Below are positions 35,464-41,545 of a stretch of DNA of 64,000 nucleotides, piece by piece; within the stretch, counting starts at the first letter, position 1; every line of letters begins with the position of its first letter. The translations under genes and the position numbers were made by a program. This DNA comes from Anaerolineales bacterium (GTDB taxonomy: Bacteria; Chloroflexota; Anaerolineae; Anaerolineales; UBA11657), in contig JAKUPR010000006.1 in assembly GCA_022450585.1 (NCBI GenBank), forward strand, positions 175 to 64,174. Reading direction: 5' to 3'. A model generated the notes under the pieces. It made no database searches. It worked only from the letters and a program-made list of their open reading frames with translations, and was not told the DNA's origin.

Positions 35464-36444
35464 ATGACACAGACAAACTTACGTGACCCACGCATGTACG
35501 GTGAAATTCGACTATACGCCGGTTCCGCCAGCCCGGAGCTTGCCGGGGAAATTAGTGATTATCTTGGAGTACCTTTGAGTGGTCGCGATTTGTTGAGTTT
35601 TCCCAACGAGAATCTTTTCTGCAGATTGCACGCTAGTGCACGAGGACAGGATGCTTATGTAATTCAGAGCACAACGTCACCAGTGAATGACAATTTAATG
35701 GAATTACTCATCATGCTTCAGACTCTGCGTCTGGATTCAGTTGGTCGGTTAACTGCGGTTGTGCCCTATCTGTGTTATTCACGCTCCGACAAAAAGGATC
35801 AGCCGCGCGTGGCCATTGCCGCACGCTTAGTGGCCAACATGATTGAGGTGGCTGGTACAGATCGTTACATGACCCTTGATTTGCATGCTGGACAGATTCA
35901 GGGCTTTTTTTCTATTCCTGGTGATGCTTTGACTGCCTTTCACATCTTAAGTGACCATTTTGAACAGCACTCCGAGAATATGCACAATCCAGTCGTTGTG
36001 ACTGCAGATTTGGGATTTGCAAAGAAAGGGCGCAACTTTGCCGCCAGACTGGGTTTGCCGATAGCATTTATTGAGAAGCGCCGACAGCAAAATGATTCCC
36101 GGGCTGAGGCCGTTGGAGTGATCGGAGATGTGAATGACCGCGATGTAATCATTGTTGATGATGAAGTGGATACGGCCGGCTCTGTTACAGAGGCCTATCA
36201 CATTGTCAAAGACAATGGAGCGCGAGATGTGTACCTTTCTTTTGTGCATGCCGTCCTGTCGGATCCGGCGATCGAACGATTGCAGGCAACTGATTTCAAG
36301 GCGATTGTTACCACTAATACAGTACATATTCCTGTGGCCAAGAAGCTTCCCAATATGACTGTGCTGTCTATCGCCCCTTTGCTCGCAGAAGTTATTTTGC
36401 GTGCTCATGAGGGTCGCAGTGTCGGAGAGATGTTTAACGAATAG
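35464..36444 (+). CDS. prs: Ribose-phosphate pyrophosphokinase
   Basis: Motifs YLCYSRSDKK, DLHAGQIQGFF and the PRPP loop VIIVDDEVDTAGS. Confidence 0.9.
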   Translation: MTQTNLRDPRMYGEIRLYAGSASPELAGEISDYLGVPLSGRDLLSFPNENLFCRLHASARGQDAYVIQSTTSPVNDNLMELLIMLQTLRLDSVGRLTAVVPYLCYSRSDKKDQPRVAIAARLVANMIEVAGTDRYMTLDLHAGQIQGFFSIPGDALTAFHILSDHFEQHSENMHNPVVVTADLGFAKKGRNFAARLGLPIAFIEKRRQQNDSRAEAVGVIGDVNDRDVIIVDDEVDTAGSVTEAYHIVKDNGARDVYLSFVHAVLSDPAIERLQATDFKAIVTTNTVHIPVAKKLPNMTVLSIAPLLAEVILRAHEGRSVGEMFNE

Positions 36445-36453
36445 CACGGTAGT

Positions 36454-39400
36454 ATGTTTAAGAAGCTGCTAACAGCGGTCGGGGGAAACCCGACTGAGCG
36501 CGACCTGGAAGAGTATGAAATTGTCGCTGATGCAATCTCCGCCTTAGAACCTGAATATCAGGCGCTTACCGATTCTGAGCTTTGCCACAAAACAGACTTT
36601 TTTCGAGAGCACCTGAGTAGCGCCATCTCTGGAATTACCGATGAAGAAGCCATAGCCGATGCTGAAGCAATTGCTCTTGATGACATTCTGGTTCCGGCGT
36701 TTGCCACGGTCAGGGAAGCTGCAGTCCGTACCATCGGATTGCGCCATTACCCAGTTCAACTAATTGGCGGCCAGGTGCTTCACGCAGGTCGCATTGCGGA
36801 AATGCGTACCGGCGAGGGAAAAACTTTGGTGGCGACTCTGCCTCTTTACCTGAACGCGCTTCTGGGCCGTGGCTCGCATCTGGTGACGGTCAACGATTAC
36901 CTGGCTCGCCGTGATGCGAAATGGATGGGCCCAATATTTCATTTGCTTGGCATGCGAGTTGGTATTCTCCAGGACGCTGGTCGTACTGACAACGCACAAA
37001 TGGCCTTCGTTTTTGATCCTGAGCACGAGACGTCGCAAGAGGATAGCAACCGTATGCGGATTGTGCCTCGACGTGAGGCTTACGATGCTGATATCACTTA
37101 CGGTACAAACAATGAATTTGGATTTGATTATCTGCGTGATAATATCGCTAATCGCTTGGATGAAAGACGGCAGGGAATGTTGCATTACGCCATAATTGAT
37201 GAAGTAGATAATGTACTCATTGATAGTGCGCGTACTCCACTGATTATCTCTGGGCCTGCACAGCACGATCCGACTATGTACGCGGAGCTAGCACAGGTTG
37301 TGCGTCAGTTAAAACCTAATCATTATGATATTGATGACCGCGCACGTGGAATATCCATTACCGATGAAGGCTACGATCGGGTTGAAGAACTACTTGGCCG
37401 GATGCTCCGTGATCCCGATCGTCCGGAGGACATCACCCCAGAGCAAGCGCAGATTCAATCGCATTTGGAACAGGCGATGCGAGCCGAATTCATTTTTAAG
37501 CGGAACAAAGATTATCTAGTGAGAAGCGGTCATGTGGTCATTGTAGACGATTTCACTGGTCGGGTGATGCCAGGACGCCGCTGGTCTGATGGACTACATC
37601 AAGCTGTGGAGGCTAAGGAAGGAGTGGATATTCAGGCGGAGAATGCTACATACGCTACCATCACTCTGCAGAACTTTTTTCGCATGTATACGAAGCTTTC
37701 TGGTATGTCTGGTACCGCCCTGACTGAAGCTGAGGAATTTGACAAGATTTACAAGATTGACGTTGTTGCAATCCCTACTCATCTTGACTATCGTGCTCGT
37801 GTCGACCCTGATTTGACCGAGGTTGCTTTCCGTGAAAATGGCTCGAGATTTACCTTTATTGCGCATGTGAATGACCCTGATATACCATTACTTCACAGGC
37901 GTAAAGATTATGATGACCTAGTCTTTCGTACCGAGGAGGCCAAGCTCCGTGCCCTTATGCGGGAAGTACTTACCCGTCATGTACGTGGTCAGCCCATGTT
38001 GATTGGTACCACTTCGGTGGAGGCATCTGAACAATTGGCGTCCCGCTTCCGGGGAGATGCCCTACGCATGTTGGCTTTGGTCTGGATACTACGGGATACA
38101 TGGTTCGAGGCCAATGATCGAGAGGAGGATGGTCGCGTAGTGCCGGAACTTGCGCTGTTCAATATGTCGTTGCAGAAACTGAAGACATCGCAATTGAGAC
38201 CCCTCGCAAAAGAGCTGAAACTGCGCTTAAATCCTAATTCTGCTGAAAACATCTCGAGGTTGGGCGATATACTCGGCATTGAATCACAGCTGCATTCAAA
38301 ACTAAGCAAAGTACTTCAGTCGGGTATTTCTTGCCAAGTGTTGAACGCCAAGAAGCATGATGAAGAATCACAAATTATAGCGAGCGCCGGGGAACTTGGA
38401 GCGGTTACTATTGCTACTAATATGGCCGGTCGAGGTGTAGATATCAAGCTAGGCGGTGAAATTACCGAAGAGGCGCTTGCCAACGTCAACCGCGTTTTGA
38501 AGCGCACGGGCAGCAGTGATCCTTTTAGTATGAATCATGAGGAACGTGCTGAGGCAATCTCCGCACTTTCTTCTGATGACTACGGAATTTATGAAGAGGA
38601 GGTGCGGGCATTTCTACAGTATATTGATGACGAACAGAAAGTGCGTGGGTTGGGAGGACTACACGTGGTTGGATCGGAACGCCACGAAGCGCGTCGCATT
38701 GATAACCAACTTCGTGGGCGCGCCTCCCGTCAGGGGGATCCGGGCTCTAGCCGTTTCTACCTTTCCCTAGAGGATGAGCTTATGCGTAGGTTTGGCGGTG
38801 CCAATGTCTCAAACCTTATGGAGCGCTTGAGCATTGATGAGGCAATGCCTATTGAGCATGGCATTGTGAATAAGAGCATAGAGCAGTCACAGACGAGAGT
38901 AGAAGGTGCTAATTTCGACGTGCGCAAACATTTGCTCGAATATGACGATGTACTCAATGTGCAGCGCAACAAATTTTACCAGCAGCGAAATCGTATTTTC
39001 CGCAAGGATGACCTCAGCGAAGACATCGAGGCAATTCTGGTAGCTGAAGTGCGAAGACGGGTGACAGCGTCCAGTGCGGATGAGGAGGGTCATTGGCGGT
39101 TGCTGGCTTGGCTAGATAGCACTCAACCTACGTTACAGCATCCGGATGGCAGCCTTTTCTTTCCCTTCAGCATAGAGTTGATTCTGGATTCATTGGCGCA
39201 GGCGGTACCGGCATTGGGGAACCTCTGGCAGGTGCAGCATCATGCGGGGGATGTTGAAGATTGTGCTCGGGCACTTTCTGGACAACAAACTGAAATTAGA
39301 ACCACACTTTTGCAAATGGCCCGGAGTGCTGCCGATTTAGCACTGGAACGTATGCTGCTTTCATATGATGCCGAGTTAAATACTCTAGCTGCGCAATTGC

Positions 39401-40665
39401 CTGAGCGGATACGCGAAAGATGCGAACTTGCAGAAATGACGTATGAAGGAGCTGTGATGGATGCGCGGGAAGCCGGACATGCTTTGCCAGTTACGCAGGT
39501 AGCAAGAGAAATGCTCGACACTGCTGGGGTGTCTCTGCAGTTAGGTCGTGAAGAGCTCCAAGAGTTGAACATGGATAACCTTCAGGATAAGGTGAAGACA
39601 CTCATTGAGAGTGTGCTAGGTATAGAACTGGTTAGTGGTGCAATGCGTCGAATTGAAACGCGTACGCGGTTGGAGTTACTGCTGGACCTGCCTGCTTGGG
39701 ATCAATTTGACTGGGATGACTGGCACGATAATGTGTTGGAAATACTGGCGATTGAGCAGAATGTTCGCATTGAGAAGCACATTGGCGAAATAGAATACTT
39801 CCTTGAGCAGAATGTTACCCATTCAGCAGATATGACGCGCAGTGATTGGGGACGCCTAATTTTAGACTTGGCATATAGTCGTGATGTCAGTTTCCATGAG
39901 AAGACTCGTGAGCGGGTGGTTCGTATGGAGCAACGCTTCCCGTATGTGTATCACTCGGCGGAGTTGGTGCATCGAGATGACGATGAAACTTTGTCGAAAC
40001 ATGTGCTAGATCATTTGACGCGGGCAGGTGAAGTGTTGAAACACTCGTGGGGCGAGACAGAATTACAGCGTTTGCATCTGCAGCGTCTCGATGATTTGGA
40101 TGAAAAGCACGCAACTATGCTGCGCGCTAGGATTGGTAGAACTGAATACGAAGCTATTAAGGGACAACAGCTAAGTGTGCTGTCCGGTAAGGTGCGCGAG
40201 GAAGTGCGAGAGGCGCTTGGGCGAGGTGTTGTAATCGGGGCCTATCGACAGATATTACTTTCTATTAGTAGTCAATTGTGGGTGGATTATCTCACGTCTA
40301 TGGAGGCACTACGTACGTCTGTTGGTCTTGAGGCATATGCGCAGCGCGACCCGTTGATAGCTTACAAGAGTCGTGCATTTGATTTATTTCAACAGCTAAT
40401 TCTTGATATGCGCAATGGTCTTGTTGCTTGTATGTTTACATCTGGCCCTGGGGAGTTGACCGGCGTCCGTACGGATAGGCCCCAAGACGAATCGAAATCA
40501 GGTGGGACCGACCTTGGTCGTAACGACCCATGTTGGTGTGGGAGTGGAAAGAAGTTCAAGAGTTGTCACATGGGACATTCGGGAGACAAAACTGCTCGGT
40601 CGGTTAGACACCCTTCGAGGAATACTAAAAAGAAAAAGCGCAAGAAGCGGCGCGCCCGTCGTTAG
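36454..40665 (+). CDS. secA: Preprotein translocase ATPase SecA, unusually long (1403 aa)
   Basis: Walker A MRTGEGKTLVATLP, DEAD-like box IIDEVDNVLIDSARTPLIISG, TGMSGTA, ATNMAGRGVDIKLGG, RIDNQLRGRASRQGDPGSS, and C-terminal zinc motif CWCGSGKKFKSCH. Large extra segments at about 38050-38330 and 39000-40245. Confidence 0.93.
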   Translation: MFKKLLTAVGGNPTERDLEEYEIVADAISALEPEYQALTDSELCHKTDFFREHLSSAISGITDEEAIADAEAIALDDILVPAFATVREAAVRTIGLRHYPVQLIGGQVLHAGRIAEMRTGEGKTLVATLPLYLNALLGRGSHLVTVNDYLARRDAKWMGPIFHLLGMRVGILQDAGRTDNAQMAFVFDPEHETSQEDSNRMRIVPRREAYDADITYGTNNEFGFDYLRDNIANRLDERRQGMLHYAIIDEVDNVLIDSARTPLIISGPAQHDPTMYAELAQVVRQLKPNHYDIDDRARGISITDEGYDRVEELLGRMLRDPDRPEDITPEQAQIQSHLEQAMRAEFIFKRNKDYLVRSGHVVIVDDFTGRVMPGRRWSDGLHQAVEAKEGVDIQAENATYATITLQNFFRMYTKLSGMSGTALTEAEEFDKIYKIDVVAIPTHLDYRARVDPDLTEVAFRENGSRFTFIAHVNDPDIPLLHRRKDYDDLVFRTEEAKLRALMREVLTRHVRGQPMLIGTTSVEASEQLASRFRGDALRMLALVWILRDTWFEANDREEDGRVVPELALFNMSLQKLKTSQLRPLAKELKLRLNPNSAENISRLGDILGIESQLHSKLSKVLQSGISCQVLNAKKHDEESQIIASAGELGAVTIATNMAGRGVDIKLGGEITEEALANVNRVLKRTGSSDPFSMNHEERAEAISALSSDDYGIYEEEVRAFLQYIDDEQKVRGLGGLHVVGSERHEARRIDNQLRGRASRQGDPGSSRFYLSLEDELMRRFGGANVSNLMERLSIDEAMPIEHGIVNKSIEQSQTRVEGANFDVRKHLLEYDDVLNVQRNKFYQQRNRIFRKDDLSEDIEAILVAEVRRRVTASSADEEGHWRLLAWLDSTQPTLQHPDGSLFFPFSIELILDSLAQAVPALGNLWQVQHHAGDVEDCARALSGQQTEIRTTLLQMARSAADLALERMLLSYDAELNTLAAQLPERIRERCELAEMTYEGAVMDAREAGHALPVTQVAREMLDTAGVSLQLGREELQELNMDNLQDKVKTLIESVLGIELVSGAMRRIETRTRLELLLDLPAWDQFDWDDWHDNVLEILAIEQNVRIEKHIGEIEYFLEQNVTHSADMTRSDWGRLILDLAYSRDVSFHEKTRERVVRMEQRFPYVYHSAELVHRDDDETLSKHVLDHLTRAGEVLKHSWGETELQRLHLQRLDDLDEKHATMLRARIGRTEYEAIKGQQLSVLSGKVREEVREALGRGVVIGAYRQILLSISSQLWVDYLTSMEALRTSVGLEAYAQRDPLIAYKSRAFDLFQQLILDMRNGLVACMFTSGPGELTGVRTDRPQDESKSGGTDLGRNDPCWCGSGKKFKSCHMGHSGDKTARSVRHPSRNTKKKKRKKRRARR

Positions 40666-40684: not shown

Positions 40685-41494
40685 TTAGGGCTTGTGCTCG
40701 GGTTGGCAACCGGGGCAGAAATATGTACCACGCTGTGCTACTGTAGTACGAGTAATAGGTAGGCTGCATCTGTGGCACGGATCTCCACGTCGACCGTAGA
40801 CGCGAAAATGGTGCTGTTGGCTCCCACCCTTGTAAACCCAGTCGATGCTGGCACCGTTGTTTCGAATTCCGTCTCGTAATACTCTCCGTAGACTTCGCCA
40901 CAATAATCGTGCTTGCGCTGGCACGAGCGTATCGCTGCGTCTCATGGGATGTATCCCTGCGAGATGTAGAGCTTCGTCGGTATAGATGTTCCCCATCCCG
41001 GCGAGGAAGCTCTGATCGAGTAGTAGAGGCTTTAACATGCGTTTTCGTTTTGCGAGCGAACGAGCAAAACTATTTGACGTGAATTGTTTTGATAATGGTT
41101 CTGGACCAAGCCTTGCGGTAATTTCTTCTGCTGTTCTAACTAGATAGACTCTGCCAAATTTGCGTGGATCAGAGAAGCGTAATTGTTGATAGTTGTCCAA
41201 GGTCATAATTGTGTGGGCATACTTGTCAACAGTTGTAGATTCTTCGGTTATGTATAAGTCTCCACTCATACGTAGATGAAATAGTAATGCGTCTTCGCTA
41301 AGTTGAAAGACGAGAAACTTGCCACGTCGTCTTACTGCTGTAATCCGCTGTCCACGTATGCGCTTGGTGAATACGGCAGGTAAAGGTCTGTCAATCTGAC
41401 GGGGCCAGCCTATGTGTGTGTTTCTGATGGACCGGCCAACGCAGGGCCCTCGTAACTGACGCACGCGGGTTTCGACTTCAGGTAGTTCAGGCAT
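40685..41494 (-). CDS. mutM: Formamidopyrimidine-DNA glycosylase (Fpg/Nei family)
   Basis: MPELPEVET N-terminus (catalytic Pro2), which requires the ATG at 41494 rather than the track start at 41518. H2TH region and C-terminal zinc finger C..C.......YFCPGCQ. Confidence 0.88.
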   Translation of the reverse strand: MPELPEVETRVRQLRGPCVGRSIRNTHIGWPRQIDRPLPAVFTKRIRGQRITAVRRRGKFLVFQLSEDALLFHLRMSGDLYITEESTTVDKYAHTIMTLDNYQQLRFSDPRKFGRVYLVRTAEEITARLGPEPLSKQFTSNSFARSLAKRKRMLKPLLLDQSFLAGMGNIYTDEALHLAGIHPMRRSDTLVPAQARLLWRSLRRVLRDGIRNNGASIDWVYKGGSQQHHFRVYGRRGDPCHRCSLPITRTTVAQRGTYFCPGCQPEHKP

Positions 41495-41545
41495 TGTTTG
41501 GCCTTGGCCAGCGTCCATAAAGGGGACACTAGCCTTGTGTTGGAG

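Follow-up and report, generated by a model that had tools for sequence, protein, structure and literature searches.

The window analyzed here is a stretch of 64,000 nucleotides from an Anaerolineales bacterium of the Chloroflexota (contig JAKUPR010000006.1 of assembly GCA_022450585.1), and its gene secA encodes a protein some 500 residues longer than the SecA of E. coli. Judged by its domains and motifs, the protein is a SecA, the ATPase driving unfolded preproteins through SecYEG; its motor is canonical, and the protein has gained six insertions specific to its lineage, all at surface sites and the largest of them in the wing. Taken jointly, there is little doubt that the protein is a SecA and that its long form belongs to a clade rather than to one genome. 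Few bacterial machines have been studied as closely as SecA, yet the role of its wing is poorly understood; mycobacterial SecA2 is not known to have a wing, which comprises about 90 amino acids (aa) in model organisms. An original prediction, made from the letters of the window, had described a SecA with two large insertions and a polybasic tail, and had proposed a multiple alignment with known SecAs, structure prediction of the inserted segments, a survey of the long form and a search for a second, canonical SecA.

The secA gene and its motor

The features of secA are collected in Table 1. The reading frame runs across 36454-40665 with no stops and no frame changes, and base composition is uniform over the whole length of the gene. 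The assigned start codon is right, because the N-terminus MFKKLLTAVGG lines up with the start of E. coli SecA in the MAFFT alignment.

Table 1 Features of secA in the window, with residue numbers of the encoded protein.
Feature	Position	Strand	Evidence and remarks
secA	36454..40665	+	one open reading frame, 1,403 aa; ATG 36454, TAG 40663-40665
I0, residues 57-73 (~16 aa), N-terminal helical region	36622..36672	+	MAFFT; in only ~74% of homologs
I1, residues 172-196 (25 aa), NBD1	36967..37041	+	MAFFT; common across Chloroflexota SecAs
PPXD (preprotein cross-linking domain), residues 274-386	37273..37611	+	PF01043, E 9e-33
I2, residues 444-482 (38 aa), NBD1/NBD2 junction	37783..37899	+	predicted helix and beta hairpin, pLDDT only 51-70
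I3, residues 534-621 (88 aa), NBD2	38053..38316	+	predicted five-helix subdomain, pLDDT 80-91
Enlarged VAR subdomain of NBD2, residues 676-726 (exceeds E. coli by ~31 aa)	38479..38631	+	helical, pLDDT 82-86
Giant wing domain, residues 861-1258 (398 aa)	39034..40227	+	E. coli ~78 aa there; net ~+320
C-terminal scaffold helices / IRA1 two-helix finger, residues 1259-1330	40228..40443	+	aligns with E. coli 757-830 and PDB SecAs; second PF07516 stretch
SEC-C zinc finger, residues 1356-1373	40519..40572	+	PF02810, E 2e-9; Cys/His ligands within CWCGSGKKFKSCH; PDB peptides 1SX0, 1OZB
Extension of 31 residues after the zinc finger	40570..40662	+	sequence
E, expectation value; pLDDT, predicted local distance difference test score.

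Five SecA domains are recognized by Pfam. Besides PPXD and the SEC-C zinc finger these are SecA_DEAD (PF07517, E 7e-112), P-loop_SecA (PF21090, corresponding to NBD2/IRA2; E 4e-71) and SecA_SW (PF07516, E 8e-40), the last of which is found in two stretches with the enlarged wing between them. A PDB search matched solved SecA structures down to E 1e-185, and over the aligned regions the identity to E. coli SecA is 47%. The Walker A motif MRTGEGKTL (residues 117-125) and the Walker B motif IIDEVDNVLID (residues 247-257) are invariant across the aligned homologs, as are the NBD2 helicase motifs V/VI and arginine finger, represented here by ATNMAGRGVDI and RIDNQLRGRASRQGDPG; the RGRxxRQGDPG arginine-finger motif is present as well. 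The five domains and the invariant motifs confirm the earlier statement that all SecA motor motifs are in place. The canonical SecAs of E. coli, B. subtilis (1M6N/1TF5) and M. tuberculosis (SecA1, 1NKT) share this domain order and all of the ATPase motifs, whereas their wings measure ~80-100 aa against 398 aa in the window SecA.

Insertions relative to known SecAs

The extra length was mapped by MAFFT alignment with E. coli K-12 SecA (annotated record, 901 aa) and 7 to 120 homologs. The ~500 additional residues are grouped in six separate blocks and are not evenly spread, such that the two large insertions of the original prediction become six sites, four smaller ones having been overlooked. 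Both of the large blocks were correctly placed. In NBD2, where about 90 extra residues had been expected ahead of CQVLNAKKH, 94 residues lie between SVEASEQLASRF (ending at 532) and that motif (starting at 627), compared with 6 in E. coli, for a net gain of ~88. In the wing, 416 residues separate VQRNKFYQQRNRIF (ending at 848) from RQILLSIS (starting at 1265), close to the ~415 predicted; the corresponding E. coli gap, given as ~125 aa, is in fact ~97 aa, for a net gain of ~320. No Pfam family was found at E <= 0.05 in the four insert and tail segments searched, except SEC-C in the tail.

Lineage-specific inserts in SecA are already known, and several of those seen here have counterparts. The SecA of Thermus thermophilus carries a 76-aa conserved signature insert in NBD2 (Khadka & Gupta 2019, PMC7023208), which in the solved structure (2IPC, 997 aa) is similar in size to I3 and occupies the same NBD2 site, flanked by the SxExSE helix and the VLNAK motif. 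HMMER aligns 2IPC 414-725 in one stretch to window residues 483-800, passing through I3 (533-625) and VAR, and because this alignment is unbroken, I3 is placed at the site of the 76-aa Thermales insert. Inside I3 the HMMER alignment holds only scattered identities to 2IPC, and sequence similarity there is weak. The NBD2 insertion is therefore extra relative to E. coli, as had been claimed, and yet a counterpart at that site is known from Thermus. The Thermus protein also has a long VAR (a VAR region is present at this site in M. tuberculosis SecA too), but it is without the giant wing, the junction insert and the polybasic tail of the window SecA, and the link to thermophily published for its insert is not obviously applicable here. 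A second, probable counterpart concerns I1. Thermotoga maritima SecA has a 50-aa insert in NBD1 (PMC7023208), and its residue 204 aligns with window residue 201 in the PDB-search alignment (3DIN/4YS0); from this residue numbering and the published position, the 25-aa I1 probably sits at the same site. I2 has no counterpart in the solved-structure alignments viewed (1NKT, 1TF2, 2IPC), and a 41-aa insert is found at its site in the SecA of one other genome, G121. An insert of 86 aa at the I3 site accompanies a wing of normal size in G210, a genome of the same class and another order.

The wing domain

The wing alignment comprised 29 sequences (residues 856-1262), made up of the window protein and Anaerolineae loci from public genomes. 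The resulting AlphaFold2 model has a pLDDT of 92.4 and a predicted template modeling score (pTM) of 0.82, and it is all-alpha except for one beta hairpin at ~1141-1160, with one helix extending over 63 residues. On this model the wing is predicted to fold independently, as an all-alpha and strongly acidic domain of some 400 residues that stands where other SecAs have a small helical wing. The large helical addition to the scaffold and wing that had been proposed is thus upheld in its helical character and its location in the wing, while the change to the scaffold is not.

Where might such a domain have come from? The model had no match in the PDB by Foldseek, in which the best hit reached E 0.12 and TM values did not exceed 0.18, as for chance-level helical hits. 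The wing also has no Pfam match, and no similarity to the wing of E. coli could be detected. Tandem duplication was considered and rejected, since hhalign comparison of five wing pieces against one another gave no repeats. When the wing profile was run against 1.84 billion representative proteins, 412 clusters matched, and the best 149 of these were checked. BLAST aligned 135 of them co-linearly to the window SecA, mostly into the flanking scaffold, which identifies them as SecA or as SecA fragments from short contigs; for the remaining 14, BLAST produced no alignment at E <= 1e-5. No stand-alone wing protein that could have served as a donor was seen among the best 149 of the 412 matching clusters.

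Among homologs the wing is less conserved than the motor (19-29% versus 56-63% identity), and some of its residues are invariant. Its net charge is -26 here, with a median of -19 across homologs. No publication on the long form came up in literature searches that paired SecA with Anaerolineae, Chloroflexi or insertions in the wing, and the confident fold, size and structural novelty of the wing are undescribed as far as these searches went.

Copy number and distribution of the long form

The source genome is a metagenome-type assembly of 2.07 Mb in 130 contigs, 87.5% complete, and it contains a single match to SecA_DEAD. A first sample of 300 Chloroflexota genomes included 27 of the same order (96-100% complete, some closed). 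Each of these 27 has exactly one SecA_DEAD match, within open frames of 1,303-1,425 aa; in genomes of high GC content, such as G210 and G290, open frames come out longer than the actual proteins. The second, canonical SecA for which a check had been proposed was therefore found neither in the 87.5%-complete source genome nor in the 27 same-order genomes, and one SecA per genome in all of them makes the long form the probable housekeeping SecA. A search of 5.8 billion proteins returned, among the matches listed, at least 119 homolog clusters besides the window's own, with the same domain set at 1,319-1,474 aa; those with a name are labeled Chloroflexi or Anaerolineales, and the contigs that carry some of them measure 0.66 to 6.4 Mb.

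The wing profile matched all 27 same-order genomes (E 1e-88 to 1e-138) and none of the 273 other Chloroflexota in the first sample. The wing as a trait of a single order was nonetheless rejected, because wider sampling of the class finds it in other orders: 21 of 117 genomes from other Anaerolineae orders, representing at least 10 families, match the profile. Their SecAs fall at about 1,290-1,490 aa or at about 2,000-2,200 aa, and SecA open frames of 2,009-2,208 aa occur in 11 genomes of other orders (G303, G308, G324, G338, G342, G345, G358, G368, G372, G374 and G409). The long form is thus what a large clade of Anaerolineae normally has, and still larger forms occur.

One of the largest forms is encoded at L048:2958-9116 (plus strand), a SecA of 2,053 aa with a wing region of 1,247 aa. 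The first 434 aa of that region are homologous to the window wing (hhalign probability 98.6%, E 1e-15), and the remaining ~800 aa, which follow the shared module, have no Pfam match. These SecAs of ~2,000-2,200 aa have the same motor as the window protein and a homologous wing module, with some 800 more residues behind that module, but are without some of the motor inserts; in L048 the equivalent of window residues 1-870 measures 740 aa. A different case is found in G247, a genome of another Chloroflexota class, whose 1,443-aa SecA (locus L086) has a 369-aa wing and a 210-aa VAR. Its wing has no detectable similarity to the window wing, and close relatives within its family have SecAs of ~1,000 aa. 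The same sites seem to have expanded independently in this case. Given these unrelated or extended wings and the NBD2 inserts of other lineages, the wing site and NBD2 are recurrent hot spots of expansion, and the window SecA is a mid-sized member of the series. That the wing reaches ~1,250 aa in relatives is, as far as searches went, undescribed.

The C-terminus

The C-terminus of the window SecA departs from that of E. coli in two respects, a shorter linker ahead of the zinc finger and a polybasic-ended extension behind it. As the original prediction stated, 31 residues follow the zinc motif CWCGSGKKFKSCH. The last 12 of these, KKKKRKKRRARR (nucleotides 40627-40662), include 11 lysines or arginines, the tail carries a net charge of +15, and the secA product has the most basic C-terminus among ~1,675 open reading frames of >=100 aa in its own genome.

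Runs of the KKRRRH type terminate most of the fetched Anaerolineae loci. Among the 119 listed long-form clusters, a zinc finger was found in 54 and a polybasic end in 90; 25 have both and none has neither. In many clade members, then, the basic C-terminus stands in place of the zinc finger. The zinc finger of E. coli SecA binds ribosomes as well as SecB, and other highly positive SecA C-terminal tails, such as those of Actinobacteria, have been suggested to keep ribosome contact (Jamshad et al. 2019, PMC6620043). The window tail resembles these Actinobacteria-type tails in being highly basic, but its polybasic run is added behind an intact zinc finger and is a short, clade-conserved terminal (K/R)6-12. 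Together with the published work, the distribution among clusters suggests that zinc finger and polybasic end are interchangeable, and they may be alternative devices for contact with a negatively charged partner. This complementarity is undescribed as far as we searched.

Polybasic ends are seen elsewhere in the same genome. A 336-aa open reading frame (C120:27732-28742, plus strand) ends in SGGRRRRGRRR, and a 338-aa protein (C49:8039-9055, minus strand), by eye perhaps helicase-related, ends in RHRRRRNRKKKGRN.

Discussion

We consider it likely that the window encodes the housekeeping, long-form SecA typical of its clade. It may work broadly along the following lines. Translocation would be driven by ATP as in other SecAs. 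The wing would lie along one side of the preprotein groove and face the cytosol, where its enlargement would add a surface on which substrates or partners could dock or be retained, or else a platform for regulation. The polybasic end would do the job of the basic zinc finger, either as a tether to the ribosome or to anionic lipids or by docking on the acidic wing. Taken on their own, these roles for the wing and the tail are offered tentatively. The contacts with new partners, ribosomes or lipids that the original prediction had proposed for the insertions are plausible, and in the case of the tail the complementary occurrence of zinc finger and polybasic end lends them indirect support.

In favor of the role proposed for the tail, the net charges of wing and tail are inversely correlated across homologs (rho -0.44; related, non-independent sequences), and SecB was searched for and not found. 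Several observations weigh against the explanation. The E. coli wing is acidic too (-15 over 97 aa), and for that reason the charge argument is weak. Both this correlation and the pattern of zinc fingers and polybasic ends come from related sequences and overstate the independent support. The AlphaFold2 model of the motor (residues 1-870) has a pLDDT of 65.5 and a pTM of 0.45, a poor result explained by an input alignment that was shallow and too uniform; its use was restricted to reading local secondary structure in the inserts, and it was not fold-searched. Finally, SecY (PF00344) had no match in the 87.5%-complete assembly, while all 14 control genomes were matched. This absence is probably due to an assembly gap that left the secY region unassembled. 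YidC is present.

One rival hypothesis, which we consider possible and rate about as highly as the proposed roles of wing and tail, is that the insertions are neutral or near-neutral decoration, tolerated at surface loops, stabilizing at most and giving rise to no new interaction. Such a view would account for the unrelated insertions that the same sites hold elsewhere (in NBD2 of Thermus, and in the wing and VAR of G247), for wing regions that range from 160 to 1,247 aa in other SecAs, for a wing that evolves much faster than the motor, and for the lack of any known domain or motif in the inserts. However, in all sampled genomes of the same order, and over several orders, the wing is in frame and at full length, which argues against mere tolerance, as do its invariant residues and very high predicted fold confidence. 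Moreover, that a genome of 2 Mb has kept these ~1.2 kb of coding sequence speaks for selection.

An alternative hypothesis attributes more to the insertions than the explanation we favor. Here the wing would be an autonomous domain, so far undescribed, that acts as a built-in platform for holding substrates or docking partners and thus serves as an internal chaperone or a means of targeting in a lineage without SecB; the polybasic run would substitute for the zinc finger as a tether to ribosome or membrane, and the module would have been extended to ~1,250 aa in sister lineages. We regard this as rather unlikely. If true, the Anaerolineae would offer a natural series in which a core translocation motor gains new functions.

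It is very improbable that the protein is instead an accessory SecA2-type paralog that serves special substrates beside a canonical SecA. Accessory SecAs are known for a divergent wing and C-terminal tail, and M. tuberculosis SecA2 (4UAQ), which is not known to have a wing domain, was among the PDB matches. But the source genome and each sampled same-order genome have one SecA_DEAD match only, and secA, whose neighbors are prs and mutM, has no accessory secY2, asp or glycosyltransferase gene close by. That the long frame is an assembly or annotation artefact (fused genes, or an intein or mobile element inside secA) has next to no probability, since its unusual length and its origin in a 130-contig metagenome-type assembly are outweighed by the same layout in at least 119 listed clusters and 27 near-complete genomes, some closed, by an uninterrupted frame of even base composition with SecA scaffold on both sides of the wing, and by the lack of any intein, homing-endonuclease or transposase domain by Pfam in SecA or its inserts (E <= 0.05 in the inserts); the fusion of two genes that the original prediction had held open is contradicted by the same evidence, including contigs of up to 6.4 Mb.

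The preferred explanation, a housekeeping SecA in the long form of its clade, has consequences beyond this locus. A confidently folded wing of four times the usual size, seen only inside SecA and across many Anaerolineae families, provides a handle on the role of that face of the motor, and the wing forms a series from ~400 aa here to ~1,250 aa in related lineages. The distribution of zinc fingers and polybasic ends leads to a simple, testable hypothesis on the conserved function that the SecA C-terminus has apart from SecB. For annotation, Anaerolineae SecAs of 1,300-2,200 aa are genuine and are not to be split or flagged as fusions.

Genomic context of secA

The gene prs (35464-36444) lies upstream of secA, with 9 nucleotides between its stop and the secA start and no obvious Shine-Dalgarno sequence. 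Downstream, mutM/fpg (40685-41518) is convergent and its stop lies 19 nucleotides past the end of secA, such that the gap between the two genes leaves hardly any space for terminators.

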